This document shows, piece by piece, positions 2,778 through 36,985 of a DNA stretch of 64,000 nt; positions within the stretch are counted from its first letter, which is position 1; every line of letters begins with the position of its first letter. The notes under the pieces are model-generated. The model was not told the origin of the DNA. It worked only from the letters and a program-made list of their open reading frames with translations, and did not search any database. Source of the DNA: an uncultured Eubacterium sp. (GTDB taxonomy: Bacteria; Bacillota; Clostridia; Lachnospirales; Lachnospiraceae); contig CAJUAU010000004.1 in NCBI GenBank assembly GCA_910584645.1, forward strand, positions 7,333 through 71,332. The letters run 5' to 3'. The position numbers and the translations under genes were made by a program.

Positions 2778-3550
2778 ATGCCTTTTTCTCCTATAAGTTC
2801 TTCTATTGTCTCCCGGATTTTTTCCTTATCCGGCGGTTTTAATATATACCCGTCTGGTTTTGATCTGAGCACATCGTAGATGGATTTACGGTCAGCAATA
2901 CTCGTGAGAAATACGACCGGGATCCACTTCATATCATCATCCTCTTTCATCGCCTCAAAGGTACTCTTGCCATCCATTCCGTCCATCTCGTAATCGAGGA
3001 GGATCAGATCCGGATTCTCCCTTGGAATCAGTTTTAATGCCTGTTCTCCCGATTTGGCAAGACAGATGTCATAATGCTTCTCCAGCATGCTTTTCATACT
3101 GCGGAGCAGAATGGCGCTGTCGTCCACAAGCATGATTTTCTTTTTTCTCCGCTGGCTTCTGACCACTCTTTCCTCCGTCTCGCACACGCCGCCAGACTGC
3201 AGCATCTGGTGGCATTTTTCCAGGAGTTCCTTCTTTGCCACCGGACGGAACATTACATCAAACTGCTCACTTTTGTAAAATTCCCTGCACTGTTTCCACC
3301 CCTCATTCGTCGTAACACCCAGGGTTGGTATCTTAGGACATTTCTCCTGAATCCATTCAAAGATGGCATTGTCGATCTCTTCCACCCCGATCTGACATAT
3401 GATGATGAGTTCCGGCTTGACGATCTTAACCATCGCCTTCACATTTTCAAGCTGCTCTGAACAGAGCTGAACCTGAAATTCCCCTGCCAGGCATTCATTC
3501 AGGCTCCGTACGATTTCGCCCAGTTCCCCGATCAAAACTATCTTTTTCAT
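2774..3550 (-). CDS. Response regulator with a degenerate N-terminal receiver-like domain, a canonical C-terminal REC domain and no output domain
   Basis: The C-terminal half (KKIMLVDDSAILLRSM...DLILLDYEMDGMDG...PVVFLTS...ILKP) has the REC acidic pocket, phospho-Asp and conserved Lys. The N-terminal half (KIVLIGELGE...LIIICQIGVEE) is REC-shaped but lacks the Asp residues. RBS GGAGGG lies 7 nt upstream of the ATG at 3550. Confidence 0.8.
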   Translation of the reverse strand: MKKIVLIGELGEIVRSLNECLAGEFQVQLCSEQLENVKAMVKIVKPELIIICQIGVEEIDNAIFEWIQEKCPKIPTLGVTTNEGWKQCREFYKSEQFDVMFRPVAKKELLEKCHQMLQSGGVCETEERVVRSQRRKKKIMLVDDSAILLRSMKSMLEKHYDICLAKSGEQALKLIPRENPDLILLDYEMDGMDGKSTFEAMKEDDDMKWIPVVFLTSIADRKSIYDVLRSKPDGYILKPPDKEKIRETIEELIGEKGI

Positions 3551-6500
3551 GCTGATCCCTCCATTTTTTTATGATCTGCTCCAGTTCCTCTGCCCATGCC
3601 ACGGTCTGCTCTTCATCCAGATTTGTGACAGCAAGGTCAAGCGCCTCTACTGCTTTTTTCATCTCTTCTTCCGGATATGTAAAGTGATTCAGCTTCTCGA
3701 TGACCGCATCGGCTGTGTCCACATCCATTTCTTCTATAGCACTCTTTAATAAAGGCAATAGTTCCCGGATAAGCTGATAATCTGGTTCTTCTTTTTCTTC
3801 CTCCGTCTCCCCGCTCTGTGCAACAGGCGCCAGAATCTCTTTCATCCTTCTCCATTCCTGAATAAATGCGGGAGCCACATTATTTATCCATTCCGTCTTT
3901 TCATCCCTTGCAGCATATTCGAGCATCCTCGCCACCCCGGCAAGGGATACGGCGCCGATCATGGCGGCGGAATTTTTCATAGAATGTACCTGGATCCGGA
4001 AAGAAGAAACGTCCATCTCAGACAAAAATCCTTCCAGCCATGCCGCCTCTGACTCAATGCTGACGTAAAATTGATGGACCGTATCTTTTAAAATCTCCTC
4101 ATCCCTGCAGTATAGTCTGGCATATTTCCAGTCAATCCCCTCCAATTCGGGCAGAAACATCTCTCCTTTTCCTTCCTCCGTCACATCTCCTGGCATATCT
4201 TCTGTCCCCGCCCCGTAAGTTACAATTTTTTCTTCCGGTAACATTTTCATGATCATCTTTTCCAGTTTTTCCGGATTGACCGGTTTGGACAGGAAATCCT
4301 GAAACCCTTCCTTCAAATACATCTCCCGCGCTCCGGTCACAGCATTTGCCGTCAGTGCGATGACTGGCGTATCCTGACAGGGATACTCCTGCCACTCCCT
4401 CATTTTATGTAAAACTGTGATTCCATCCATCCCCGGCATCATGTGGTCGAGAAAGATCAGATCATATGCCTTTTTACTGACAAGCTCCAGACATTCCTCA
4501 CCCCCGGCCGCCTCTTCTACCTGAATCTGCGTCGCCTTCAAAAGTTTCACAAATACCCTTCTGTTTACCGCATTGTCATCGACAACCAGCACCCGCGCTT
4601 CCGGAGCAGTAAACATCACTTGATAGGAATATTCCTCTGCCTGGTCTTTGATTCTCTGCTCCAGATCCCCTACCGGCTCATAGTCCATGATCTTTTGATC
4701 CAGTGTAAAGGAAAAAACAGATCCCTTTCCATACACGCTCTCTACCTGCAGTCTGCTCCCCATATACTCCAGCAGCTGCATCGTAATATTCATGCCAAGA
4801 CCTGTTCCCTCAATCTTCCGGTTTCTTTGTTCCTCTATCCGTTCAAATTCGTGGAAGAGCTTTTCAATATCCTCCTCCCGTATGCCGATCCCTGTGTCCT
4901 CTACCCGGAATGTCAGCTTCGCCATATCCTCTTTGATGACAGCGTGTATCATCAGAGTCACGCTGCCCCTCTCGGTATATTTGACCGCATTACTCATGAG
5001 ATTTACCAGTATCTGGCGGATGCGGACATCATCTCCCCACAGTCTGGATGGGATTTCCTTATCCACGAAAAGATTCAGTTCCAGTCCTTTATCCTTTGCC
5101 CGCATCTTCATCATATTTGACACATCATAAATAAGGCTGCTAAAATCATATTCCACCGGAAGGATCTGGAGTTTACCGGACTCAATCTTGGAAATATCCA
5201 GAATATCATTGATGAGGGAAAGAAGCGTCTGGCCCGCATTCTGGATATCCAGTGCATACTCCCGGATCTGCGCCTCCCCGCTCTCTCTCAGTATCATCGC
5301 ATCCATGCCAAGAACCGCGTGGATCGGTGTCCGTATCTCATGGGACATATTGGCGAGAAACCGCCCCTTCGATTCGCTCGCCTGCAGTGCCTGCTGTTTC
5401 TCTCTCTCCATATCCATGATTTCATGAACGGTGCTGATCGTGGAAAAACCGAGGAGAAAAATAAGTCCCAGCGCCAGAATAACTCCATTAAACAGATTGA
5501 TCCTCTGAAAATAAATAATGATCTGTGCAAAGGAGGCCAGGCATACACCTGACATTCCAATGGCAACAAAATAATATTCCCGAACCATCCCTTTCCGCAG
5601 ATCCAGAAAAATCGTCACTATGATCAGCCCAATTGAAAGTATACAAAAAGCGGACACATAAATAATGGTATCCGTAAAATCACATATGCCTGTCATATGC
5701 AGTGCCGAACAGACAAAAAAGTTAAAAATAACTATGCTTTCCATCCACTGGTATGCCTTTCTGTATCTCCCCTTCTGGATCTGATCCATATAGAGAAGAT
5801 AAGGCAGCGACAAAATCATGATCATAAGAAAGGTAATATCATTGATAATAGAAAGGTTTGGAAAAATCAGCTGCCGGAATGTGGAATTGGTAATGAGCCA
5901 GACAGCAGCTACAAGAATCCCCCATCCAAGATATTCCAGCGCCACCTTTCTATGGTAGCAGAAGCGCAGTGTCACGCTTCCGATGATAGCAATGATGCTG
6001 AGTATAAGTGTAACAAAGGCAACGATAAGTTCCAATCCAAGCTGACGGAAAAAATATTTCCACACCCCCATCGGGTTTCCATAATAAACCGCATATAAAA
6101 CACCCGAATAGGAGGAGTCCGTACGCATCTCCACACGGAGCATCTTCTGTGCATCATCCGCGCCAATCTCAAGAAAAACATATGCCGCAGCACTCATCCG
6201 TCCAAAAAGCCTGTTTCCTTCTGTAGAATATTCTTTCCTAAGCTGTCCGTCGATAAAAAACTTCATATCCTGTTTTGCACTGCGAAAGCAGAGATAGCGG
6301 CCGTCCTCCATGTCTGCCGGCAGTTTTGTCTCCACAACTACCGTTTCGTTTCGCTCTGCTGCGCACTTTCCAGGCATTGTCACTGACTCCCTCGTCCCTT
6401 CAGGCGTGATCCGCTCCCACTCTCCTTTGTATTCGCTGCACTCAGAGTACTGATCCAGTCGATCAGGAGGCAGAAAAATCTCTCCCCACAGAAAATAGTT

Positions 6501-6554
6501 ACCGACAATAACAACCAACACGAAAAAAATAAAATTTATGACCTTCTGCCTCAT
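3495..6554 (-). CDS. Hybrid sensor histidine kinase (extracytoplasmic domain + ~7 TM, HisKA, HATPase_c, REC, HPt)
   Basis: H-box SHEIRTPIHAVLGM. N/G boxes NLMSNAVKYT, EDTGIGI, GTGLGM. REC VLVVDDNAVNRRV...IFLDHMMPGMDG...ALTANA. HPt-like HSMKNSAAMIGA. Multiple hydrophobic helices between residues ~190 and 400. Confidence 0.85.
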   Translation of the reverse strand: MRQKVINFIFFVLVVIVGNYFLWGEIFLPPDRLDQYSECSEYKGEWERITPEGTRESVTMPGKCAAERNETVVVETKLPADMEDGRYLCFRSAKQDMKFFIDGQLRKEYSTEGNRLFGRMSAAAYVFLEIGADDAQKMLRVEMRTDSSYSGVLYAVYYGNPMGVWKYFFRQLGLELIVAFVTLILSIIAIIGSVTLRFCYHRKVALEYLGWGILVAAVWLITNSTFRQLIFPNLSIINDITFLMIMILSLPYLLYMDQIQKGRYRKAYQWMESIVIFNFFVCSALHMTGICDFTDTIIYVSAFCILSIGLIIVTIFLDLRKGMVREYYFVAIGMSGVCLASFAQIIIYFQRINLFNGVILALGLIFLLGFSTISTVHEIMDMEREKQQALQASESKGRFLANMSHEIRTPIHAVLGMDAMILRESGEAQIREYALDIQNAGQTLLSLINDILDISKIESGKLQILPVEYDFSSLIYDVSNMMKMRAKDKGLELNLFVDKEIPSRLWGDDVRIRQILVNLMSNAVKYTERGSVTLMIHAVIKEDMAKLTFRVEDTGIGIREEDIEKLFHEFERIEEQRNRKIEGTGLGMNITMQLLEYMGSRLQVESVYGKGSVFSFTLDQKIMDYEPVGDLEQRIKDQAEEYSYQVMFTAPEARVLVVDDNAVNRRVFVKLLKATQIQVEEAAGGEECLELVSKKAYDLIFLDHMMPGMDGITVLHKMREWQEYPCQDTPVIALTANAVTGAREMYLKEGFQDFLSKPVNPEKLEKMIMKMLPEEKIVTYGAGTEDMPGDVTEEGKGEMFLPELEGIDWKYARLYCRDEEILKDTVHQFYVSIESEAAWLEGFLSEMDVSSFRIQVHSMKNSAAMIGAVSLAGVARMLEYAARDEKTEWINNVAPAFIQEWRRMKEILAPVAQSGETEEEKEEPDYQLIRELLPLLKSAIEEMDVDTADAVIEKLNHFTYPEEEMKKAVEALDLAVTNLDEEQTVAWAEELEQIIKKWRDQHEKDSFDRGTGRNRTEPE

Positions 6555-6571
6555 ATTCTACCTCATTCTTC

Positions 6572-7393
6572 TTATCTCTGGATCGACCTGGCCACTTTTT
6601 CTACAGACTTGCTCAATTTCTGATGCTGTTTCACCGCCTCCTTCGATGCCCCTTCAAACTGCACATCGGTAGGAAATACGGCTACGTAACGGACCCCATT
6701 CCACATACCCACCAGCTCATATGCCGGCAGTTCCTGATAGGATTCGTCCTCATATCTTGTGATGGAAAATAACCATCCGAGCTTAGTTTCATTGTAACAT
6801 TTCTTTGCATAAAATACCACAGAAGCATTCCTCTTGTTCTTTCCTATGGTCTTCACAGTATAATTACCCTTCCAGACCGCCGGCAGTTTCAGCGAAAAAT
6901 CCCTGGCACGGTATGTCCCCTTAGGAGTTTTCTTTATCGACTGGATGGAAGCTGCCGCTTTCAGTGAATCCCCATTCAGCTTACGATACTGTTGTTTCGC
7001 AGTCTTTGAAGCTCCCATGGTCTGGATATCCGTAGGAAACACCGCCACGTAATTCAGACCGTTCCACCTGCCCACCAGTTCATACTGTGGCAGATCTGTA
7101 TAGGAATCATCCTTATATCTCATAATGGAAAACAGCCATCCCTCACCGGTTTCCTTATGGCACTTTTTAGAAGAAAACGCCACAAAAGAACCTTGTTTTT
7201 TCTTCCCACTGCGTTCCATCATATAGTTGTTTTTCCATTCTGCTGGCAGCTTTATGGTAAAGTCGGCCGCTGCTTTTACTGTAATTGTCTTTTTTGCCGC
7301 TGCAGATATGGTCTGTTTCATGGGGAAACTGCCAAACCCTGCCACTAGGGACAGGGTAAGGACAGCCGCCAGAAACGAGCGGATACGTTTCAT
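6572..7393 (-). CDS. Secreted protein made of two tandem ~115-aa homologous domains, function unknown
   Basis: Signal-like MKRIRSFLAAVLTLSLVAG. Start moved to the ATG at 7393, which sits 4-5 nt after GGAGGT. The two halves align: FTIKLPAEWKNNY...GWLFSIMRYKDDSYTDLPQYELVGRWNGLNYVAVFPTDIQ versus FSLKLPAVWKGNY...GWLFSITRYEDESYQELPAYELVGMWNGVRYVAVFPTDVQ. Confidence 0.6.
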   Translation of the reverse strand: MKRIRSFLAAVLTLSLVAGFGSFPMKQTISAAAKKTITVKAAADFTIKLPAEWKNNYMMERSGKKKQGSFVAFSSKKCHKETGEGWLFSIMRYKDDSYTDLPQYELVGRWNGLNYVAVFPTDIQTMGASKTAKQQYRKLNGDSLKAAASIQSIKKTPKGTYRARDFSLKLPAVWKGNYTVKTIGKNKRNASVVFYAKKCYNETKLGWLFSITRYEDESYQELPAYELVGMWNGVRYVAVFPTDVQFEGASKEAVKQHQKLSKSVEKVARSIQR

Positions 7394-7408
7394 AAATACC
7401 TCCATTTC

Positions 7409-9682
7409 TTATTTTTTCACCTTAATACTTTTTTTGCTGCTCCAGCTTCCATATATCGTTTTCCCGTTTTTCTTCACACAGGCGCGTACACGGAAATAAT
7501 ATGTCTTTTTCTTTTTCAGACCCTTCACGGTCAAACTGGTACCCTTGAAGGATTTAGTTTTCTGTCTCTTCATCGAGGACTTTGTGGCATATGCCACCTG
7601 ATATCCTGTAGCGCCGGCAACTTTTTTAGAAAGTATAAGTGTTACCTTCTTTCCCTTTTTATTCGTCAGTTTCTTTATCGCAGGCCTGCCCGGCTTTTTC
7701 GCCTCCTTCTCTGACAGCTGCGGTTCCTGTGTCGATATCACCGGCTTCACCGTAGTATTCGGCGTCGGTATCACCGGCTGTGGGGTAACATCCGGCTGTA
7801 CAGTAATATCCGGCTCTGGCTTCTCTGGTACAACGACGCCTTTCGGTGTCACCTGTCCCGCATAAGTCCACAATGCTGTATTGGACAGATCAACATGTAA
7901 AACTGGACGAATCCCCAGATAGGAGGAAGCCTTTTCCAACATCACACTTGATTCTGTCTGGATTTTACCCTCTCCCCAGTCTCCCACCTGTGCCGGACAG
8001 CCTCTTCTCGTCCCTGGAGAACGCAGCCAGTAGGACATAAAACCGTCCGCTGGCTTACATGGTGTGCCTCCCTTATCTGCATAATCTGTGACCGTGATCT
8101 TTCTTGTACTGCCTTCTGCCACGTCACTGCTGAATCCGTAAACAGGATCCAGCATCTCCTCAATAGAGGGAAGATAGATCTTGTCTTTAGTATCATTCCC
8201 ACCGGGTTCTTTCGACCACTGGTTATCCGGTGTCGTAACATTCGTAGTTTTCATCGCTTCCTGTTCATCCGGCGTAAATGACATCTCCATGAATTCACCA
8301 TTCAGCCACTGTCTGACATCGCTCTTTTCCCATGTGATTTCCATGGAGCCATCATGGTAATACTGTGCCACATCAATCACTCTGTCTGCCATCAAAAATG
8401 CATCGCTGCCATCTTCATTAATGGACAAAACACGCCACTTGATGGGCTCCTGCTGAAAATATCCCTGCTCATGGCGGGGGAGAAAAAATTCATTCTTTTC
8501 ATCCACTTTTACGATATTATCTTCGCCCGCTTCTGACAGAACCGAGGGTGTGACTTTTGTATTAAAATACAGTCCGAAATAAATACAGTCCCATATATTC
8601 TTTGTCAGGTCAACTCCATTGACAACAGGATTTTTCGGATATATCTGTCCTGGCGCCATCGTAACCTGTGGCTGCAGTGTTGGCTTCTCTGTCGGACTGG
8701 CCGGCGACACAGTAGCATCCGGTGGAATCACCATCTTATCCTGCATTACCTTTCCGGCATAGCGCCAGATGCCCGTCTTCGTCAGATCCAGATGAAGCAA
8801 CGGACGAAGCCTGTTGTAGTCATTCACACGGTTCAAAAGTACATATATCTCTGTTGTCGGAATACTTCCATCCAGATAATTTACATGACTGACAAGATTT
8901 TTTGCCGCCATCGTCCTAAGCCAGTAATCCGCAGAAACATTATCATATTTAGCGGTTCCCCCGGCCTCTGCAAACTCTGTATTCTCCACCTGTCTTGTCT
9001 CTGTGGCTTCTGTATCATCTGTAAAACCATATGCCCGTGATGTAATCTCTTCCCGGGAGGGCAGATAGATACGGTCTGTCGTGGAAACTTCGTCCTGCAC
9101 GTCCTCCTCTTCTTCTTTCACATATTCCGGGGTTTTCTTATTCAAAATTGTGGCGGGAAGAATCCCCTCCTTCTCCTCATCGGTAAATACCCTGTTCAGA
9201 AATTCTTCATTCAGCCACAGACGAACATCAGAATTCTCCCAAGTAATACCATCACCGCCGACGCCACTGTGATAAGACTGGACATCGAGATTCTTATCTG
9301 CCATCAAAACAGCTTCTTTGCCATCTTCGCTGACCGACAGCACACGCCACTTGACCGGCTCATATTTGTAACACGTCTTATCCTCACGGACAAGATATTT
9401 TGTGCCGTCCGTATCCTCGTGTACCACATCATCCTCCCCCTGCTCTGGCTGATTTCCCGGCTGGGGTATGTACCTGCTCTGCCAGTAATTTCCAAAATAT
9501 ACACAGTCCCATGAAATCTTTCCTTCTTTGGCATCAATAACCGGATTCCCCAACGTCACCGCTTCTTTGGTATCCGGATCTACCGCCTGCGCGGCTCCGT
9601 CAGATATCCAAAATGATGCAAGACACAATGACATGACTAAAAACCATGCCGTCACCTTTCTGCTTTTCTGTTTCATTTTCAT
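7409..9682 (-). CDS. Secreted protein with two DUF6273-like repeats, a Pro/Thr linker and a basic FN3-like C-terminal domain
   Basis: Start moved to MKMKQKSRKVTAWFLVMSLCLASF (GGAGGAA RBS; the ORF-track start is an upstream GTG). The unit KWRVLS..DG..A.LMAD...D...Y....ITWE.SDVR.WLN.EF....FT..E occurs twice, as I recall for DUF6273. The C-terminus GATGYQVAYA...YYFRVRAC is FN3-like and Lys-rich. Confidence 0.6.
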   Translation of the reverse strand: MKMKQKSRKVTAWFLVMSLCLASFWISDGAAQAVDPDTKEAVTLGNPVIDAKEGKISWDCVYFGNYWQSRYIPQPGNQPEQGEDDVVHEDTDGTKYLVREDKTCYKYEPVKWRVLSVSEDGKEAVLMADKNLDVQSYHSGVGGDGITWENSDVRLWLNEEFLNRVFTDEEKEGILPATILNKKTPEYVKEEEEDVQDEVSTTDRIYLPSREEITSRAYGFTDDTEATETRQVENTEFAEAGGTAKYDNVSADYWLRTMAAKNLVSHVNYLDGSIPTTEIYVLLNRVNDYNRLRPLLHLDLTKTGIWRYAGKVMQDKMVIPPDATVSPASPTEKPTLQPQVTMAPGQIYPKNPVVNGVDLTKNIWDCIYFGLYFNTKVTPSVLSEAGEDNIVKVDEKNEFFLPRHEQGYFQQEPIKWRVLSINEDGSDAFLMADRVIDVAQYYHDGSMEITWEKSDVRQWLNGEFMEMSFTPDEQEAMKTTNVTTPDNQWSKEPGGNDTKDKIYLPSIEEMLDPVYGFSSDVAEGSTRKITVTDYADKGGTPCKPADGFMSYWLRSPGTRRGCPAQVGDWGEGKIQTESSVMLEKASSYLGIRPVLHVDLSNTALWTYAGQVTPKGVVVPEKPEPDITVQPDVTPQPVIPTPNTTVKPVISTQEPQLSEKEAKKPGRPAIKKLTNKKGKKVTLILSKKVAGATGYQVAYATKSSMKRQKTKSFKGTSLTVKGLKKKKTYYFRVRACVKKNGKTIYGSWSSKKSIKVKK

Positions 9683-9786
9683 ATCAATTCCTCCATTTTC
9701 TGCACATATAGTATATGCTTTTAATATATTTACAGCTCTGTGTCTCTGAAGCACAGATACGTAAATTCTTAACTGTTGGCACCGCT

Positions 9787-10869
9787 TCAGTCATAGTTTT
9801 TTAATGATACATAATAATCTGCAATATAAATCCCTATTACCTGACTGATATCAATGGCTTTCTTAAACTGTCCCACATATTTCTGATACGTCCGCCCTTT
9901 CCTCTCATACTGCCCAATGCTTCCTCCATTTACCAGCCCCTTATCTTCCACATTGGGGCTATCGACAATAACTTCACTTCCATCAAACATTTTAAGGCGA
10001 ATGACAAATCTCGTATCCGTTGTATTCAATGTATCCGTGTCAACTTTCGACACATCAGAGATCAGAGTCAGCCCCAGCGGAAGAAGATCGATCTTTTTTA
10101 TATCTGCTGTCGTTCCAGCAAAAGAATATTTCATATCCTCAGTACCCTTTACAGTGATCTTCTTTGAATTAGTATAAGAAGCAGTAAAAGAGAGACTCCA
10201 CATGCCCTCTACCAGTATCTCCGGCTTATCCTCGTATGGTCCCTCAAGCAGATCTTCAAAAAAGACAGTCACATCTTTTCCCTCCGCAATCTGCTCGTCC
10301 GTTCCAACACTGACAACAAACATTCCCACATTCTTCCTGCCATTCAGAACCTCTAGGAGTTTACATTCTCTTGTTCCCGGCACCAAACTGGAAACATTAT
10401 AGTTTGTCCCCTCGCAAAAACCAAAATAATCAAATGTCATGCCCTGCTTAAATTCCACACTGGGCGGTGCTGTAATCTTTATCACAGCATAAATATTCTG
10501 TGTGTCCATCACCACTTCTTTTAGTTCCATCATTAAATCCGGCTTGCTGACTGCCTCTTTCTTTTCACTCTCTACCCCTGCCTTTTCCAACTCTTCCTCA
10601 CCCATTCCGAAAAAATCCATAATTGTCTGTTTAAAGGTTCCGAGAAAACTGGCTTCTACTACCTCGGCACTGGAAAAACATAAATATCCTGTTATTAGAA
10701 GACAGAGGGCAGCTACAGCAACTGCCACCTTTACAAATGACTTTTTCCGGGGAGGTACAACACAATCTTCCTGAATCGTTTCAAGAATCTCGTCTACTTT
10801 CTTATGATAAGTTTCCGGAACTTGGAATTCTTTTGACAATTTTTTTATTTTCTTATCAAACTTAGCCAT
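9787..10869 (-). CDS. Putative anti-sigma factor / single-pass membrane protein (DUF4179-like)
   Basis: Overlaps the upstream ECF sigma gene by 8 nt. Short cytoplasmic N-terminus, one TM helix (VAVAVAALCLLITGYLCF) and a large extracytoplasmic domain. The call rests on position and topology, not on a motif. Confidence 0.55.
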   Translation of the reverse strand: MAKFDKKIKKLSKEFQVPETYHKKVDEILETIQEDCVVPPRKKSFVKVAVAVAALCLLITGYLCFSSAEVVEASFLGTFKQTIMDFFGMGEEELEKAGVESEKKEAVSKPDLMMELKEVVMDTQNIYAVIKITAPPSVEFKQGMTFDYFGFCEGTNYNVSSLVPGTRECKLLEVLNGRKNVGMFVVSVGTDEQIAEGKDVTVFFEDLLEGPYEDKPEILVEGMWSLSFTASYTNSKKITVKGTEDMKYSFAGTTADIKKIDLLPLGLTLISDVSKVDTDTLNTTDTRFVIRLKMFDGSEVIVDSPNVEDKGLVNGGSIGQYERKGRTYQKYVGQFKKAIDISQVIGIYIADYYVSLKNYD

Positions 10870-11338
10870 TTCTATGCCCCCTTTCCAAAGCCTCTCTGAT
10901 TTCTGCTTTCCCCCTATTCAGCCTGGACTTTACCGTACCAACTGGAATATCCAGCACATCTGATATATCCCGGATCGACAATCCTTCATAGTAAAATGAT
11001 ACAACAACCAAACGATATTCCTCTTTCATGTTCTGCAGAATATCCCACAATTCATCATAATGTGCCACCACCGGTTTCGATAAGGCCTCCACCGCTTCGT
11101 CTCCTGGCAGATATAAGCGCTTTTTCTTTATTTTCAAAGCTTCATTTTTTGTAATAGTCAGTATCCAGGGCTTAAATTTATGGAAAGCACTGATCTGTTC
11201 TATATTCTCATATGCTTTTAAGACCGCATTACTCACAGCATCTTCTGCATCCGTCTCATTTTTCAATATCGCCAATGCCATAATATACAAGTCATCCCTG
11301 TATTTATTGACATTTTCACAAAACTTTTTCGCCTCCAT
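10862..11338 (-). CDS. ECF-type RNA polymerase sigma-70 family factor
   Basis: 158 aa. Region 2-like DAEDAVSNAVLKAY...FKPWILTITKNEAL and region 4 HTH LSIRDISDVLDIPVGTVKSRLNRGK. Confidence 0.85.
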   Translation of the reverse strand: MEAKKFCENVNKYRDDLYIMALAILKNETDAEDAVSNAVLKAYENIEQISAFHKFKPWILTITKNEALKIKKKRLYLPGDEAVEALSKPVVAHYDELWDILQNMKEEYRLVVVSFYYEGLSIRDISDVLDIPVGTVKSRLNRGKAEIREALERGHRNG

Positions 11339-11656
11339 AAATATTTACCTTTCCTCTTCTAGGATTTGTTCCCACTCCTCTAATTTCCCCTCATTATTCT
11401 CCCTCTACATATAAAGATACTTTAAAACTTAAAAAGGTTCCCAGATTTTAATTTTATTATAGTCGTGTTACGACTATTTTTCAACGAAAAACTTTTTCTT
11501 TTTTATAATTATAGGAGAATTGCGATCCATGGTATTCGTTGGGGGCAAAATAACTTTTGCCCTCAACATCATTGTGAAAAATATTTCAGAATTCTTGTAT
11601 CAGATTTTGAAGAAATAACAAATATAAGTTATACGAAACAATAGAGGTGTTTTTAC

Positions 11657-11863
11657 ATGATATTTGAGAATATAAGAAACCTGCGGGAAGACTGCGATAA
11701 AAAACAGCAGGAAGTAGCAGATTACCTGCACATAAAGCAGACGACTTATTCTAAATATGAACTGGGCAAAATAAATATCCCAATAGAAATATTCATAAAA
11801 CTTGCAGATTATTATCATGTATCTGTTGATTATCTGCTGGGACGAACGGATAAAAAGGAATAG
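11657..11863 (+). CDS. XRE-family helix-turn-helix transcriptional regulator (68 aa)
   Basis: IRNLREDCDKKQQEVADYLHIKQTTYSKYELGKINIPIEIFIKLADYYHVSVDYLLGRTD is a classic Cro/C1-type HTH. AGAGGTG RBS upstream. Confidence 0.8.
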   Translation: MIFENIRNLREDCDKKQQEVADYLHIKQTTYSKYELGKINIPIEIFIKLADYYHVSVDYLLGRTDKKE

Positions 11864-11870
11864 CTGCATT

Positions 11871-12845
11871 TTATCCACAATAGTCCTGACAACGATTTTT
11901 TCTGTTGATCCAGGCAACAGAAGCATCCATTGCTGCGCGGCACGCCTTCGTCTGATCCAGTGCATTCAGCATGACAAAATCATGGATCATACCCTGAAAT
12001 CTCATTGCTGTCACATCTACCCCGGCTTCCCGCAGTTTTCTGGTATAGGCCTCCCCTTCATCCCGCAGAACATCCGCTTCACCATTTAGGATCATGGCAT
12101 CCGGAAGCCCCTCCAGCTGCCTGACATCCGCCCTGAGAGGAGATGCTGTGATGTCATTCCTGTCACAGGTTGACATCGTATACTGATCCCAGAACCACTT
12201 CATCCCTTCCCGGTAAAGATAATACCCTTCCGCAAACTGGCGGTAGGAGTCCGTACAAAAACAGGCATTTGTAACGGGATAATATAAGAGCTGTTTTTGA
12301 ATATATGGCCCCTTTCGTTCTTTTGCCATAATTGTCATGGCTATAGCCATATTTCCTCCCACACTGTCCCCAGCCACGGTAAGGGTACACGGGTTCATGC
12401 AAATGTCCATCTTTTCCAGGATGGATGAGAGCCTGCATAACACGTTATAACACTGTTCGATCGCCACTGGATAACGTGCCTCCGGTGAACGGCTGTATTC
12501 CGGAAATACCACGACAGAATCCGTCCTTGCAGCCAGTTCCCTCACCAATTTTTCATGAGTATGAAAACTTCCAAAAACCCACCCTGCGCCGTGGATATAG
12601 AAAATCACATTGGCGGGAGAAGTAATATGTTCTGGGCAAACGACATAGACCGGAATCTCCCCCCGTTTCCCCGTATTTACATCAAGCTTCCTGACATCCG
12701 CCGGATACATACACACCGGCGCATTCTGCGCCTCCTCCAGCACTTCCCGCCCCTTCCATGGCGGCATCTGATAAATCAAAGGCGGTGTACAATTCGCATT
12801 CGCGACCTCCACAGCCTCCGGTTCAAGAGACATTCTATTTTTCAT
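11871..12845 (-). CDS. Alpha/beta hydrolase, esterase/lipase of the HSL-like (abhydrolase_3) type
   Basis: Oxyanion motif HGAGWVFG, nucleophile elbow GDSVGGNMA, and C-terminal D...HDF catalytic residues. Confidence 0.8.
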   Translation of the reverse strand: MKNRMSLEPEAVEVANANCTPPLIYQMPPWKGREVLEEAQNAPVCMYPADVRKLDVNTGKRGEIPVYVVCPEHITSPANVIFYIHGAGWVFGSFHTHEKLVRELAARTDSVVVFPEYSRSPEARYPVAIEQCYNVLCRLSSILEKMDICMNPCTLTVAGDSVGGNMAIAMTIMAKERKGPYIQKQLLYYPVTNACFCTDSYRQFAEGYYLYREGMKWFWDQYTMSTCDRNDITASPLRADVRQLEGLPDAMILNGEADVLRDEGEAYTRKLREAGVDVTAMRFQGMIHDFVMLNALDQTKACRAAMDASVAWINRKNRCQDYCG

Positions 12846-18655: not shown

Positions 18656-21600
18656 TTAACAGTTGGAATCCTTTGGTACAATAAAATAATTAATCTCCCT
18701 GGAATCATCCCCAAGCATTTCAATGTTTTTAACAGTCCTGCTGTCTTTTATATTGGTAGAATCACAGGTGGTGCTTCCACAGTGCTGAACCTCAACTTTG
18801 TAAAATGCTTCCAGGCCTTTAAAACTTTCCAGCAGCCCCGCCACTTCATCAGGGATCATCTGAATGATTTCTCTCACACCAGGGTTACTGATCACCGGAC
18901 ACTGCTCACGCTCTTCCTCCGGCTCTGCCACGTAATTAAGACAAAAAGGACTTTGTCTGGCTATCTTCATAGAATTCAAAAACATGTATATATCATTACG
19001 GATACGATTAATATCTTTTTCCGTCAAAAAAGGTAAAAAATAACGATAAAATACAGTTTGTAAATATGAAAAAACCGAATATAAAACCAAATTACAATAT
19101 CTCTCTAACCTATTATCTTTTTTCTTCGAATCCACTTCTAATTTTATTTCCGTTTCTTTCAAAATATTTAACATCCGCCTTTCTATTTTTTCCATCATTA
19201 ACCTGTATATTTTATTCCGAACTTTTTCTTGAAGTTCATAGAGAAGAGGAGCCATATTCTCATAATCCGTTTCTTTTTTCGTTTGGAAATCACAAAATAT
19301 CTGATCTTCATCAACAAAAAGAGAAGAAAGCCCATATGTTGCTGGACCTGAACTGCCATTAACGGATACCCGGAAATGCTGGTTATTTTCTCCCTCCCCC
19401 CCATCTTCTCTCCATAAAATAAGTTGAGCAATTTCTATATGCGCAGAGCAACCTTTTAAAGGACATTCTTCATTTATTATATTTGCATCTGGCAATTTAA
19501 ATATAATTTCATCATTAGTCATATTTTTTCTCCCCTTGCACTCTTCACAAGAAGCCCATGTAGCATACGAAAAAATGCCCTCTTCCTCTTCGTTCTCTCC
19601 CATACGCATAAAGCCTTTTATCTGAAGCCCAGAATTATCTTTACATATTACACGATCATATATCTTATCTTTATACTCATGTATTATACAAATATTTTTA
19701 TCAGCTTCTCCTTTTTTCTTACACCTTTCATATATACAATCTGCCAGTTTCTTCTCCAACGGATTCGCATGTTGTCCGACACATATATAGTTAACATCCT
19801 CTGCAACCTCGTCCTTTTCCTCATCAGGTAAACTTATTAATACATATTCACCAATTACAGAACGTTTTGATAAATAATGCGACAACTCTGAAACGGCATC
19901 CAGATCCCATTTTGCGACACGCCGTCTCGGATTATAATCATTTACATCTTTATCATTATACTGTGATAAATAAATTCTTAGACGATTATAACGAAGCATG
20001 ATATTCCAAAACCGCCTTCGATAATAAGATTCCAATGCTACTCTGTTTTTTATTTGAGTTTCTTTATCATTTGATTGTTTTTTTATATCCGCTCCTACTT
20101 TCTCCCAGGATTTATCATCGTCTTCCTCATGCAGCTCTAAGTATTCCCACTTTTTAAATCCATGCCAGGTCGCATCAGAAGGAATGATCTTAGAATGCTT
20201 TTCGATACCAAACTGTGCTAATGCTAATTGATGATAAAATCCTTCTGTGTCATGAGAATAGTAATATGCTGTCCACAAACCGGCAACATCAAAAATGTTT
20301 CTATCAATATTTTTAATGTCTCCCTCTATTATTTGCCTTTCTTTTTCTGAAAGCTCATTTTTAACAGTTATAGCATAAATCTCTGCCCCATGTGCCGCAC
20401 CAAGCCAAAATAATGATTGGGGACTATTATTGGTAATATCTACTACTATTTCATTTGTATAGCAAAGGGTTCTAAGCATCACATGATATAGGCAAAAAGC
20501 CTTTAATGCATTGCACTGCGTGTTGTCAACCTTTAGAATATTTGGTGTCACTTGATTCTTTATTCGCTCAACATATACAGGATTGTCAGGATATACAATC
20601 ATCCCTCTATTTCCAATATATTCTTTCACAAAACGTTTTATTTCTTTTTGATATGTTTCCGACGCTCCATTAGGCTGTGTTTTATCTGTAACTTTTTTTA
20701 GTATACTATCATCCTCTGCCTGTACTTTCTCTTTTGCAGCCAGATAAGTCGCCTGATTCACTCCGATATGTATAATCTCCCCTACATTATAAAGAAGATA
20801 TCTTTCATTTTTCGCATCTTTATCGCCGTCCGGAATCACATGCCCTTGTACCAATACACCCACACGTTCTCCACAAAAGCACTGTTCCCTCTGCATCCTT
20901 TCTGTGATACTATGATAAAAATTCACGATGCACAAACCAGCTTGGTCTTCATTCAAGAACCCTTCCATTGTATAAACCACTAATGTATTATCCTGTTTCG
21001 TAGCATGATTATACTGCTTCTTTAGTTTATTATAAATGACTTTACCTATTTGTTCTTGTTTATTTCCCTCTATTTGTATCATTTCATCATAAGGAAACTG
21101 TCTATATTGTCCATCTGAAAATCCATATAATCTATTAACTGCCTTATCATATTTAAGATAATAAGTATTAGAAGACTTATCATCTTTCTCATTTTGTTTA
21201 AAACGGATTCCATAATATTCAAACAGATTTTTCCGCCATGGGTAACATCCTATGTGGTGTTGGATATCATTCAAATTAGCTATATCCTTCTCGTTCTTAA
21301 GTTCCATCTTTTTTATCTCATCTGGAAACTCTAATTTATAAAAACTCTCGCTAAAACAAATTGGTAAAATTAGCTTCTCCAAAGCAACTGCCATTCCAAA
21401 CTCATAAAATACATTTGGATTCTGAAGAGATACATCTACTATTACAAGATCTGCTATCTGGATCTGTTGGCAAATCCGGCTGCAGATGACATAATTAGAG
21501 GCTGGACTTGAGTCCGACCGGACTACCTTGATCTTGTCAACCTTCTTCATTCCAGCCATACTGCTATTTTTCTTTACACTACAGTACAATCTGTTATTTT

Positions 21601-21937
21601 TCATGTCCACGTATAAATATTTTGCCAGTGACTTAACAAATATCTCAATTCGCCATTTGTATACAACGTCAGACATATCAGAAAAATTCATGATTACAAA
21701 GGCAGAAATTGTAATTTTCTCCTTTCCTTCTTTATCTTTATTTTCATATAATTTTTTTCTTTCCCGCTGAATATTTGTTTTTTGTGAACAATATTCACCA
21801 CTCATAAAACATCGTCGGGTATGTGTACTATTCTCCGTAGAAATATAGCATGTCTGGCATACTTTTAAACCAGAACCTATATTCTCGCAATTTCCAGCAC
21901 AATTACGATTGTCATCACTCTTTTTACTTTCATCCAT
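18656..21937 (-). CDS. Large (1,093 aa) multidomain protein of unknown function: N-terminal Cys4 zinc ribbon, NDT/TIR-like Rossmannoid module, second degenerate module of the same type, further Cys-rich region; candidate signal-generating partner of the adjacent Macro effector
   Basis: Uninterrupted 3.3-kb ORF in very AT-rich DNA. Start placed at the ATG at 21937 (AAAGGGGAGA RBS) rather than the TTG at 21976. Motifs: CAGNC-x9-CQTC; FVIMNFSD...ADLVIVDVSLQNPNVFYEFGMAVALEKLILPI; later EIVVDITNNSPQSLFWLGAAHGAEIYAITV; CEECKG...ECPLKGC. No match to a protein family I can name beyond the NDT/TIR-like fold. Confidence 0.65.
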   Translation of the reverse strand: MDESKKSDDNRNCAGNCENIGSGLKVCQTCYISTENSTHTRRCFMSGEYCSQKTNIQRERKKLYENKDKEGKEKITISAFVIMNFSDMSDVVYKWRIEIFVKSLAKYLYVDMKNNRLYCSVKKNSSMAGMKKVDKIKVVRSDSSPASNYVICSRICQQIQIADLVIVDVSLQNPNVFYEFGMAVALEKLILPICFSESFYKLEFPDEIKKMELKNEKDIANLNDIQHHIGCYPWRKNLFEYYGIRFKQNEKDDKSSNTYYLKYDKAVNRLYGFSDGQYRQFPYDEMIQIEGNKQEQIGKVIYNKLKKQYNHATKQDNTLVVYTMEGFLNEDQAGLCIVNFYHSITERMQREQCFCGERVGVLVQGHVIPDGDKDAKNERYLLYNVGEIIHIGVNQATYLAAKEKVQAEDDSILKKVTDKTQPNGASETYQKEIKRFVKEYIGNRGMIVYPDNPVYVERIKNQVTPNILKVDNTQCNALKAFCLYHVMLRTLCYTNEIVVDITNNSPQSLFWLGAAHGAEIYAITVKNELSEKERQIIEGDIKNIDRNIFDVAGLWTAYYYSHDTEGFYHQLALAQFGIEKHSKIIPSDATWHGFKKWEYLELHEEDDDKSWEKVGADIKKQSNDKETQIKNRVALESYYRRRFWNIMLRYNRLRIYLSQYNDKDVNDYNPRRRVAKWDLDAVSELSHYLSKRSVIGEYVLISLPDEEKDEVAEDVNYICVGQHANPLEKKLADCIYERCKKKGEADKNICIIHEYKDKIYDRVICKDNSGLQIKGFMRMGENEEEEGIFSYATWASCEECKGRKNMTNDEIIFKLPDANIINEECPLKGCSAHIEIAQLILWREDGGEGENNQHFRVSVNGSSGPATYGLSSLFVDEDQIFCDFQTKKETDYENMAPLLYELQEKVRNKIYRLMMEKIERRMLNILKETEIKLEVDSKKKDNRLERYCNLVLYSVFSYLQTVFYRYFLPFLTEKDINRIRNDIYMFLNSMKIARQSPFCLNYVAEPEEEREQCPVISNPGVREIIQMIPDEVAGLLESFKGLEAFYKVEVQHCGSTTCDSTNIKDSRTVKNIEMLGDDSREINYFIVPKDSNC

Positions 21938-21972
21938 TTCAAATGTCTCCCCTTTGCTTACTCTATGTAAAT

Positions 21973-22860
21973 TCAATCATATATCGATACCTGGCTCTTT
22001 TGTTCAGAATAAATTACGATATTCACAGTCCCCCGGATTTCATCCGCATGTAATTGGAAAAAAGACTTTAATATTCTTACAGAATCTTTGGGGCTTAAGT
22101 CTGCCCCCGACAATCCAGTTCCCATCAGAGGCAGATATAGGTCATATCCCTGTCCCTTTTTCCGTTGAAAATCTAAAATTGATTCCGCACACTGGATCAC
22201 TTTATCTTTTGAGCTCTGTGCATTATTATTTTCATCGAACTCGGACAGGGCCACCAGAAGAAACGTAACTTTATTGCTGCCAGCAACCGGTACGACAGTT
22301 CCGATCTCATAATTATTCAAATTCCCCCGTTCTTTCTTCTCACGCAGCAATATCTCTTTGGGGATTCTACTTTCAAGATATTCACTGATTTTCCTATCCA
22401 GTTCACTTCTGTCCATCCTCTCCTCACAAAATTTCAGCAGCCATTGCCCGTGAATTGCCTCGGGAGAAACTAATAGCTTTTTATTTTCTGCAATATTCTC
22501 ATCTACAATCGTATCAAAACATGTATTCACTGGAATAACCACCGTTCTTTTTTCTCTGTTTTTCTTTGGAAACCCTAATCTCATAATATCTCCGTAACAG
22601 ATACCTATCTTATTGATCCCCTTCTCATAAACAGTAAATTCCTTTTTCAAAACACAGATCCACAACAACGCAGCCGATATGCTAAACAGAATAATGCAGA
22701 TAAAAACAATGGATTTGCCAAAAAAACCTTGAATGTTAAGATCTTCCCATGTCACAAAGGAAAGCAAAATCGTAAGACCAGAAAATAACGTGGCTGCTAC
22801 TTTGCACGCTGCCTTTAGTACCCGTCTGCTATTATATCCTGCCATCTCAATGACTTCCAT
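21973..22860 (-). CDS. 2TM + Macro-domain protein, resembling the type II Thoeris effector ThsA
   Basis: ATG at 22860 with GAGGGGGAG RBS. Two hydrophobic helices (AATLFSGLTILLSFVTW, SIVFICIILFSISAALLWICVL). C-terminal ~200 aa carry Macro-like motifs RTVVIPVNTCFDT, SPEAIHGQWL and DLYLPLMGTGLSGADL. Confidence 0.65.
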   Translation of the reverse strand: MEVIEMAGYNSRRVLKAACKVAATLFSGLTILLSFVTWEDLNIQGFFGKSIVFICIILFSISAALLWICVLKKEFTVYEKGINKIGICYGDIMRLGFPKKNREKRTVVIPVNTCFDTIVDENIAENKKLLVSPEAIHGQWLLKFCEERMDRSELDRKISEYLESRIPKEILLREKKERGNLNNYEIGTVVPVAGSNKVTFLLVALSEFDENNNAQSSKDKVIQCAESILDFQRKKGQGYDLYLPLMGTGLSGADLSPKDSVRILKSFFQLHADEIRGTVNIVIYSEQKSQVSIYD

Positions 22861-22891
22861 GAAAAACTCCCCCTCTCATATTCTTTTTTTC

Positions 22892-22920
22892 ATTATATAA
22901 TACATGGTTTCTTCCCACAA
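22892..22920 (-). promoter_or_regulatory. Candidate promoter of the two-gene island
   Basis: On the minus strand: TTGTGG, 17 nt, TATAAT, ~30 nt upstream of the ATG at 22860 and downstream of the rpe terminator. Confidence 0.3.
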
Positions 22921-36759: not shown

Positions 36760-36985
36760 GAAAAAGAAGCGACATTCCCGATCAATGGAAATGCCGCAAA
36801 AATTCAATCACATTCTGTAGCACTCCATCTTAAAAGATGACAGTCATATACTTCTTCAGCATATGCCCAGGCAGACAGTCTCAGGTATCTGTCTCCTTCG
36901 GCAGACTTTCCTTTCATTTACCATCATCTATGTAACCTGACACATCCGGAAAACTACTGATAAAGTCCGCGCCTCTACTCTTTCT
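36760..36985 (-). promoter_or_regulatory. Lysine (L-box) riboswitch with terminator, in the dapA leader
   Basis: The minus-strand RNA reads AGAGGCGCGGACUUUAUCAGUAG...GGAAAGUCUGCCGAAGGAG...CUGCCUGGGCAUAUG...AUGACUGUCAUC. These match the conserved L-box segments as I recall them from B. subtilis lysC (AGAGGUGCGAACUUCAAGAGUA, GUCGCCGAAG, GGCUGUCA). The 3' end GCGGCAUUUCC...GGGAAUGUCGC plus UUCUUUUU is a terminator 25 nt before the dapA RBS. Confidence 0.75.

Follow-up and report, generated by a model that had tools for sequence, protein, structure and literature searches.

A Thoeris-like gene pair in a Lachnospiraceae genome: a type II ThsA effector and a giant DrHyd/NDT-type partner

A 64,000-nucleotide stretch of an uncultured Eubacterium sp. 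of the Lachnospiraceae (GCA_910584645.1, contig CAJUAU010000004.1, positions 7,333 to 71,332; hereafter the window) carries two adjacent minus-strand genes which are classed here as a Thoeris-like system, with a giant protein of the DrHyd/nucleoside 2-deoxyribosyltransferase (NDT) type as its upstream component. In type II Thoeris, the effector ThsA consists of two transmembrane (2TM) helices and a Macro domain, senses the TIR-made signal His-ADP-ribose (His-ADPR) and acts on the membrane. The product of the first gene is a full-length effector of this kind, while that of the second, hereafter the giant, has a predicted active NDT/DNPH1-like head. A joint function of the two genes in defence is supported by the genomic evidence. 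With somewhat better than even confidence, the pair is interpreted as an abortive-infection module of the Thoeris kind, whose giant would sense phage and make an ADP-ribose-type signal from NAD+. The two genes, as taken from the open reading frame (ORF) listing, are:

21973..22860 (-): ThsA gene, 295 amino acids, ATG start
18656..21937 (-): giant partner gene, 1,093 amino acids counted from the ATG (the longest ORF opens with a TTG at 21976, upstream of this ATG)

The ThsA effector and the architecture of its giant partner

The 295 amino acid protein represents the type II Thoeris effector over its full length, with both transmembrane helices and a ThsA Macro domain. It matches the Pfam family ThsA_Macro (PF20016, E 2.5e-37) over amino acids 85-284 and the PADLOC ThsA model PDLC00408 (E 1.1e-98) from end to end (amino acids 4-294). 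In the PDB, it matches the ThsA Macro domain structures 8r66 and 9uuz at E ~4e-10 (6e-10 for 8r66). An initial sequence-only reading of this DNA had proposed the Macro and type II ThsA identity from two N-terminal hydrophobic helices and the motifs VVIPVNTCFDT and LPLMGTGLSG; the motifs are present, the helices are found by Kyte-Doolittle analysis and the profile matches confirm the assignment. The hydrophobic segments cover amino acids 17-35 and 41-59 in Kyte-Doolittle windows and amino acids 21-38 and 50-71 by eye, the runs being VAATLFSGLTILLSFVTW and SIVFICIILFSISAALLWICVL. The two parts of the protein are encoded at:

22648..22812 (-): two N-terminal transmembrane helices, amino acids ~17-71 (Kyte-Doolittle windows and hydrophobic runs)
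22009..22608 (-): Macro domain, amino acids 85-284 (Pfam and PDB matches)

The His-ADPR pocket of ThsA_amylo is formed by D100, N133, Q135, S194, R240 and Y277 (bioRxiv 10.1101/2024.01.03.573942). In a mapping by sequence alignment alone, the equivalents D91, Q139, S206 and Y284, which make the adenine and ribose contacts, are conserved in the protein encoded here, and N133 is replaced by His137, a His being found in every gut ThsA examined.

The giant is composed of the following predicted parts:

21788..21898 (-): Cys-rich N-terminal segment, amino acids ~14-50 (conservation and model)
21338..21712 (-): NDT/DNPH1-like (DrHyd) head, predicted active, amino acids 76-200 (profiles and predicted fold)
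21401..21403 (-): codon of Glu179 in NVFYEFG, the predicted catalytic nucleophile (alignment with the YELG Glu of Rcl/DNPH1)
20627..21337 (-): middle region, amino acids 201-437, a helical linker and an alpha/beta domain (model secondary structure)
20252..20626 (-): second, degenerate NDT-like domain, amino acids ~438-562 (hhalign and recurring motif)
18659..20104 (-): C-terminal orphan module and putative sensor, amino acids 612-1093 (AlphaFold2 sub-model)

As judged from sequence profiles and the modelled fold, amino acids 76-200 belong to the DNPH1/NDT (DrHyd) superfamily as a predicted N-glycosidase-type domain. When the AlphaFold2 model of the giant (72 homologues; pLDDT 76, pTM 0.83) is compared with the PDB by Foldseek, 46 of the top 50 matches are DNPH1/Rcl or NDT structures, all at the head region, with probabilities of 0.82-1.00 (0.94-1.00 for 42 of the 46) and TM-scores normalised to target length of 0.45-0.59. 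A profile of the wider head family (A3) matches Rcl at E 1e-7, DNPH1 at ~1e-6 and the NDT structure 2a0k at E 0.004 in the PDB. PDB searches with the giant as a single sequence or as a full-length profile return DNPH1 only marginally (E 0.66 and 0.018, respectively), the match reaching significance only with the wider domain-family profile, and the single-sequence match of the head to Pfam PF05014, the sole Pfam match of the giant, is likewise weak (E 0.017). The hhalign comparison of the head with Rcl/DNPH1 gives a probability of 95.6% over 119 columns, using Rcl/DNPH1 sequences which agree with the fragments in the PDB profile-search output. TIR structures are absent from the top 50 Foldseek matches and the best TIR-type PDB match of the head profile is CAP12 (E 0.2). 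The NDT/TIR-like N-glycosidase fold and the motif NPNVFYEFG noted for this module in the sequence-only reading are both recovered.

Glu179 is invariant in 72 homologues and is kept in 55 of the 56 aligned representatives (50% identity clusters), and Phe80 is also invariant among the giant homologues. By residue count on the hhalign alignment, which has low local confidence in this region, the Tyr and Asp responsible for 2'-deoxyribose specificity are not conserved in the head: Phe80 presumably aligns with Tyr13 of Rcl, the Tyr which forms a hydrogen bond to the Glu in NDT/DNPH1, and an Ile with Asp69. It is this Tyr which confers 2'-deoxy specificity in NDT and DNPH1, and NADase TIRs carry Phe or Ala in its place (Shi et al., PMC11204291).

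The head family is broad, occurring in GTDB genomes, IMG/VR and JGI metagenomes with the motif FVxMPF...RAD...ADLVIADxT..NPNVFYELG.AHAL.KPVILI...PFD, and 31 of 70 members match PF05014, weakly. Members are fused to TPR-S, MAP3K_TRAF_bd, SLATT (SLATT_1), Macro, Mrr (Mrr_cat) and NUDIX modules, an architecture typical of conflict systems. NDT-like domains with an invariant NxNVFYExG and the beta1 Phe are encoded at loci L007-L081 (GTDB), L089-L168 (IMG/VR) and L173-L248 (JGI), as stand-alone proteins of ~120-400 amino acids or as fusions, with ~80 matches on viral-class contigs.

Conserved homologues number in the hundreds for ThsA and for the giant, which goes beyond chance. A collection of 5.8 billion proteins contains 354 homologues of the giant, none with a protein name, and the organism labels, where given (few records), are Lachnospiraceae, Roseburia or Blautia metagenome-assembled genomes (MAGs); the family is concentrated in gut Lachnospiraceae. 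No PADLOC, NCBIfam or TIR Pfam model matches the giant at E <= 1. In the N-terminal segment C30, C43, C50 and the motif RRCFMxGEYCSQ are conserved, and are modelled with short beta-strands; the Cys motif recurs in distant relatives of ~700 amino acids, and the segment is probably a small zinc-binding element. The middle region has no match in Pfam, the PDB or Foldseek. It is followed by what is predicted, with moderate support from sequence comparison, to be a catalytically dead NDT-like copy, in which FWLG replaces YE[FL]G and Leu512 stands in place of the Glu. The A3 profile aligns with amino acids 430-600 over 108 columns (hhalign E 2.3e-4, probability 45%), a narrow profile detects the internal duplication weakly (E 0.005, probability 7%), and an [FY]W[LMI]G motif with weak second matches occurs at the same position in all 58 large representatives. 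The C-terminal module (sub-model pLDDT 75, pTM 0.83) is built from a beta-rich region, in which a Cys/His site is conserved, a helical bundle and, at its end, a beta-sheet. Foldseek finds no structural neighbour for it, the best E values being 0.09 against the PDB and 0.23 against BFVD, and a search of 1.84 billion proteins with its profile recovers just 158 representative clusters. An NDT-like head is present in 56 of the 58 representatives of this module of at least 850 amino acids, the other two appearing N-terminally truncated, and in none of the 58 is the module joined to another enzymatic head such as a TIR.

Linkage of the two genes and their genomic context

Linkage was surveyed in 12 distinct loci with a full-length giant homologue and usable flanks, a small sample in which long contigs are favoured; most giant homologues lie in ENA/Logan gut assemblies, which limits the census to this number. 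Full-length homologues occur only three times in GTDB species genomes and twice in JGI metagenomes. The viral contigs of IMG/VR hold head-domain relatives only and no full-length giant, so that in this collection the giant is not carried by phages. In eight of the 12 loci a ThsA is encoded no more than three genes away from the giant homologue, in varied gene order, so that the co-occurrence which the sequence-only reading had proposed to survey is found in other genomes. The arrangements are:

L001, L082, L086 and L257: ThsA upstream of the giant, same strand
L083: ThsA divergent from the giant
L003 and L169: ThsA downstream of the giant
L258: ThsA downstream, third gene from the giant
L088, L004, L170 and L260: ThsA absent beside the giant

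A hidden Markov model (HMM) built from the close ThsAs has matches, among 248 loci, confined to the nine loci with a full-length giant, and none of the loci with a head-domain relative alone scored with it. In the converse test, four ThsA homologues (39-44% identity), situated in restriction-modification or mobile contexts, are each followed directly downstream by one or two small ThsB_TIR genes (PF08937). Since ThsB genes lie at the same position beside related ThsAs, the giant occupies the ThsB position; no ThsB_TIR-type gene adjoins ThsA in the giant-bearing loci, one of which (L258) has a TIR-like DUF4062 gene. The giant-linked ThsAs, with mutual identities of 21-54%, form three or more deep lineages which are interleaved with the TIR-linked ThsAs: the ThsA of L258 is 53% identical to one TIR-linked ThsA, and that of the window is 45% identical to the same TIR-linked protein and 24% to the ThsA of L086. 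The giants in the ThsA-linked loci share 44-64% identity with that of the window throughout. This mixing of ThsA lineages alongside conserved giants indicates repeated re-assortment of partners, as selection on functional pairing produces.

The other full-length giant loci are defence islands or mobile elements. Their neighbours include integrases, toxin-antitoxin genes, RelE/HicB, IS66, IS110 and IS21 elements, TniQ, Shedu (SduA_C), SspF-like and PDC-S15 (FRG) proteins, a TIR-ended ATPase, DUF4062-nSTAND1 and restriction-modification genes. The defence rather than housekeeping context anticipated by the sequence-only reading therefore holds for the full-length homologues, which lie by mobile or defence genes, but not for shorter distant relatives, which lie by housekeeping genes.

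In L258 (positions 1257-7808; ENA ERZ27297724 k141_752637), IS66 and IS21 fragments flank four same-strand genes, coding in order for the giant homologue (47% identity), a DUF4062+NBR1-Ig protein (359 amino acids), an NBR1-Ig protein (389 amino acids) and a ThsA_Macro protein (296 amino acids). DUF4062 has been described as the TIR-like NADase family 'Swarozyc' (bioRxiv 10.64898/2026.05.01.722283). As the giant here shares one ThsA with a TIR-like DUF4062 gene, the locus resembles Thoeris loci with several ThsBs, and by this analogy it could be a multi-sensor Thoeris-like locus with two non-canonical heads.

In the window itself, the pair has 35.7% GC against 47.1% for the remainder; no other 4.2-kb stretch in the 64 kb is as poor in GC, and the value is ~3 standard deviations under the mean. 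The hand counts of the sequence-only reading (~27%, ~27% and ~60%) agree with the values of 26.7%, 28.3% and 60.0% for the 60-nt rows at 19081, 20401 and 24061, and its gene coordinates, strand, 35-nt gap between the genes and GGAG-type ribosome-binding site for each gene are all as it had given them. The signals read from the sequence are:

22892..22920 (-): candidate promoter TTGTGG-17 nt-TATAAT 5' of the ThsA gene (inferred from sequence reading)
22867..22873 (-): ribosome-binding site GGGGGAG of the ThsA gene, 6 nt 5' of the ATG
21947..21952 (-): ribosome-binding site GGGGAG of the giant gene, 9 nt 5' of the ATG, within the 35-nt gap

A promoter and terminator scan yields promoter-like and terminator sites no more often than in shuffled sequence; the consensus scan missed the candidate ThsA promoter because its -35 element agrees at just three of six positions. 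The same scan finds no terminator-like site between the two genes, which, together with the short gap, suggests that they are co-transcribed.

On the 218-kb MAG contig GCA_948672065.1, on which the wider flanks were read, the pair is wedged between rpe, the last gene of the conserved cluster priA-def-fmt-rsmB-rlmN-stp-pknB-rsgA-rpe, and the genes of a LytTR two-component system, which are accompanied by one for a chemotaxis receptor (MCP). UDG and NUDIX genes are further housekeeping neighbours. As the sequence-only reading had noted, a small TIR/ThsB gene is absent, both from the island and within 10 kb on the source contig, and no island protein has a TIR match in Pfam or PADLOC at E <= 1. 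The remainder of the window is ordinary chromosome. A full-length lysine riboswitch (36810-36985, minus strand; RF00168, 118.5 bits) is the sole Rfam family in it above the gathering score, and a second, smaller low-GC stretch (10500-12000, 35-41% GC) is annotated with an ECF-type sigma factor, a DUF4179 protein and a small helix-turn-helix gene. A run of large minus-strand genes at 546-9754, coding for a 781 amino acid DUF6273 protein, a 277 amino acid protein without a Pfam match, a 1,019 amino acid hybrid histidine kinase, a response regulator and a 743 amino acid fn3-containing protein, appears unrelated to the pair.

Proposed mechanism and alternative explanations

In the mechanism proposed for the pair, the C-terminal module of ~480 residues and the dead second NDT-like copy would hold the head inactive until a phage cue is received. 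The active head would then cleave the N-glycosidic bond of NAD+ via a Glu-ribosyl intermediate and either free ADP-ribose or pass it to an acceptor base in an NDT-style exchange, as proposed for His-ADPR synthesis. The product would occupy the ThsA Macro pocket, upon which ThsA would oligomerise in the membrane and the cell would be killed or arrested before the phage matures. Published work makes this chemistry plausible: the ThsA Macro domain is aggregated by ADPR and by imidazole-ADPR, an NDT-like active site and a base-exchange reaction have been reported or proposed for most ThsBs of TM-Macro systems (PMC11204291), and DrHyd domains are treated as counterparts of TIR where NAD+ chemistry is concerned (PMC9503650). 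NDTs themselves are by definition base-exchange enzymes. A more detailed version is put forward tentatively, and with clearly less assurance than the general one: a DrHyd/NDT enzyme, not a TIR, may be the infection-triggered signal synthase, which would convert NAD+ by base exchange to an ADP-ribose conjugate, perhaps not His-ADPR, and may be held in check both by a phage sensor of orphan fold and by its dead copy, with which it would pair intramolecularly as a pseudo-dimer.

Several observations weigh against the interpretation as a Thoeris-like abortive-infection module. The census is small, and in four of its 12 loci the giant occurs without ThsA and with the catalytic Glu intact, including the very widespread variant P0052 (L260). 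The short relatives at L005, L006 and L217 lie beside housekeeping genes (6PGD, phosphoglucomutase, esterase) and without ThsA, and the pair in the window is a solitary islet outside any defence island. Neither the giant head nor its family profile shows similarity to type II ThsB by hhalign (E 0.14 and 0.66). The residue equivalent to R240 of ThsA_amylo is Gly252 in the ThsA of the window, and R240 contacts the histidine carboxylate of His-ADPR (bioRxiv 10.1101/2024.01.03.573942). This position is Gly, Gln or Asn in five of the eight giant-linked ThsAs as against Arg in all four TIR-linked ones, a suggestive difference in a small sample of 12 sequences; with this Arg lost or variable in giant-linked ThsAs, their ligand may differ from His-ADPR. 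Furthermore, the substrate, product and trigger assigned to the giant are inferred ones. The giant was also considered as a 'divergent ThsB', for which the hhalign comparison gives no support.

The main alternative, regarded as unlikely although far from negligible, is that the giant constitutes a self-contained defence, in which the C-terminal module senses phage and the head depletes NAD+ or nucleotides, with ThsA an optional reader of the ADP-ribose by-product or a mere neighbour. The Glu-intact giants without ThsA in L088, L004, L170 and the very common L260 type favour it, as such giants can presumably, and very probably, act alone. The short relatives standing alone among housekeeping genes point in the same direction, as do the fusions of the NxNVFYExG family to sensor-type modules (TPR-S and MAP3K_TRAF_bd), which are usual for effector domains, and the description of DrHyd domains as NADase effectors equivalent to TIR (PMC9503650, PMC8195603). 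Against it, ThsA needs a signal source, and seven of the eight ThsA-bearing loci are without another TIR-type gene, the eighth being L258 with its DUF4062 gene. The adjacency also persists through changes in gene order and swaps of ThsA lineage, which argues for selected pairing, and the 35-nt gap without a terminator suggests co-transcription. The two explanations overlap: if ADPR from the giant activates ThsA, both would be true.

In the ThsA-less locus L260 (5001-13060; Logan ERR16044881_2701), the giant P0052 (48% identity) is the commonest variant found, being indexed in 197 collection blocks; 3' of it are encoded a 301 amino acid methyltransferase-like protein (weak PADLOC mad2 match), a 963 amino acid ATPase with a TIR-like C-terminal end and a 1,057 amino acid DUF4062-nSTAND1 protein, the latter two being of STAND type, with capsule/epimerase genes adjoining. 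In L088, a glycosyltransferase/capsule locus, an FRG gene (9437-10282; PF08867; PADLOC PDC-S15, E 2e-47) overlaps the giant stop codon. FRG has been placed in the ADP-ribosyltransferase superfamily (PMC9503650). A role for the FRG protein as dedicated partner of the giant was rejected, since it is itself a stand-alone PADLOC candidate, PDC-S15, which again favours a self-contained giant. The giant homologue in L004 (7806-11414; Clostridiales MAG JAJBVE010000036.1) is split into two ORFs at 8447/8451, through a frameshift or an assembly error, with no ThsA near, and may be a decaying copy. Relatives of ~700-750 amino acids, encoded in a planctomycete MAG of the Pirellulales (L005:6843-8957), an archaeal Methanothrix MAG (L006:7935-10127) and two metagenome contigs (L171:5890-8127 and L217:5929-8103), keep the Cys motif, the active-type head and the FWLG second domain and miss most of the C-terminal module. 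That these short, ThsA-less relatives retain the tandem core suggests that it is the older, autonomous core of the giant family.

It is improbable that the head is a DNPH1-like hydrolase of phage-modified or general 2'-deoxynucleotides, with no involvement of NAD+ and with the Macro protein sensing something else. The nearest solved relatives, DNPH1/Rcl, do hydrolyse deoxynucleoside monophosphates and 5-hydroxymethyl-dUMP, but Y13 and D69 of the Rcl triad are presumably replaced by Phe80 and Ile in the giant (the residue count given above), the partner Macro domain keeps its contacts for adenine and ADP-ribose, and the alternative neighbours FRG, DUF4062 and TIR are all NAD+-linked.

Still less credible is the explanation that ThsA is left over, in decay, from a type II Thoeris system which has lost its ThsB, with the giant an unrelated chance neighbour. 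The island lacks a TIR gene and the split giant homologue in L004 suggests that decay occurs, but the ThsA is intact, full-length and 99% conserved over more than 100 contigs, and the pairing is found again, in other gene orders, with ThsAs which share only 24% identity with that of the window, which a single accident cannot explain. The last explanation, that neither gene serves immunity, the giant being an enzyme of nucleotide salvage or regulation and the Macro protein acting in ADP-ribose metabolism, merits least credence of all: housekeeping flanks here (rpe, two-component system, MCP, UDG and NUDIX) and around the short relatives speak for it, but the pair is an anomalous low-GC islet, its distribution is patchy (only 158 representative clusters), mobile-element and defence genes adjoin it in other genomes and the anti-phage function of the ThsA family has been shown experimentally (bioRxiv 10.1101/2024.01.03.573942).

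Relation to known systems and implications

The DrHyd group was reportedly defined by Burroughs et al. in 2015 (NAR). The pair shares with type II Thoeris the same full-length effector family, in which most ligand contacts appear from the alignment to be kept, and a compact operon, carried by mobile or low-GC DNA, in which a single effector is joined by one or several upstream partners. It differs in lacking a TIR protein, the defining criterion of Thoeris, in a partner which is six times the size of ThsB and which carries a predicted dead second domain copy and an orphan module of ~480 amino acids, and in having a Gly for the Arg by which the histidine moiety of His-ADPR is contacted. The ThsA of type II Thoeris has been renamed ThsC in a 2025 nomenclature. 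The most recent census of Thoeris systems, anchored on six TIR Pfams, comprises 29 effector types and no non-TIR partner (bioRxiv 10.64898/2025.12.03.692087). Neither the literature searched nor the PADLOC and NCBIfam models contain a description of the giant family, so that the sequence-only reading, which could match the combination to no described system, is upheld.

The closest ThsBs are those of subfamilies 7-9, which are TIRs with an NDT/DNPH1-like Tyr-Glu site and occur only with TM-Macro ThsA (Shi et al. 2024, PMC11204291). The giant resembles them in its TM-Macro ThsA partnership, its NDT-like active site and the proposed NAD+ base exchange, the last two having been reported or proposed for most ThsBs of TM-Macro systems (PMC11204291). 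Those proteins are, however, ~170-190 amino acids long, match TIR Pfams and have the active-site Tyr, whereas the giant matches NDT/DNPH1 and has a Phe at the aligned position. With DNPH1/Rcl and NDT (PF05014; the DrHyd of Aravind and co-workers), the head shares the fold, the profile match (E 1e-7) and the Glu in Y-E-[LF]-G. Two members of the catalytic triad, the Tyr and the Asp, are presumably replaced in the giant, and while DNPH1/Rcl and NDT are homodimers of ~150 amino acids acting in salvage, the giant head lies inside a 1,093 amino acid multidomain protein in a defence context. The giant is comparable to the DrHyd/TIR-headed conflict proteins (TPR-S and STAND/Avs-like) and DUF4062 'Swarozyc' in bearing a nucleotide/NAD+-processing head on a large sensor body, and the NxNVFYExG head family is elsewhere fused to TPR-S, MAP3K_TRAF_bd, SLATT and Macro modules. 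Unlike these proteins, the giant has no NTPase or TPR repeats and its body is an orphan fold, and the conflict systems concerned have been described as NAD+-depleting effectors rather than as partners of a separate Macro effector.

Thoeris is defined by, and searched for with, its TIR protein, and as the family-level matches of the giant are to NDT/DNPH1, a TIR-anchored census may well not flag it. If the giant does feed ThsA, it would be the first non-TIR 'ThsB', and the TIR-based definition of Thoeris would miss part of the family. The NDT-like site of most type II ThsBs could then be placed, in evolution and in mechanism, within base exchange through a Glu-ribosyl intermediate. A new phage-sensing module of ~480 residues, structurally an orphan, would be open to study, and effector-anchored searches would find systems that sensor-anchored ones miss. 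Phage defence in gut Lachnospiraceae has been little explored experimentally, and the pair raises the testable question of whether a non-TIR enzyme is able to drive Thoeris signalling; should this be so, NAD+-derived immune signalling in bacteria would not be confined to TIR domains.

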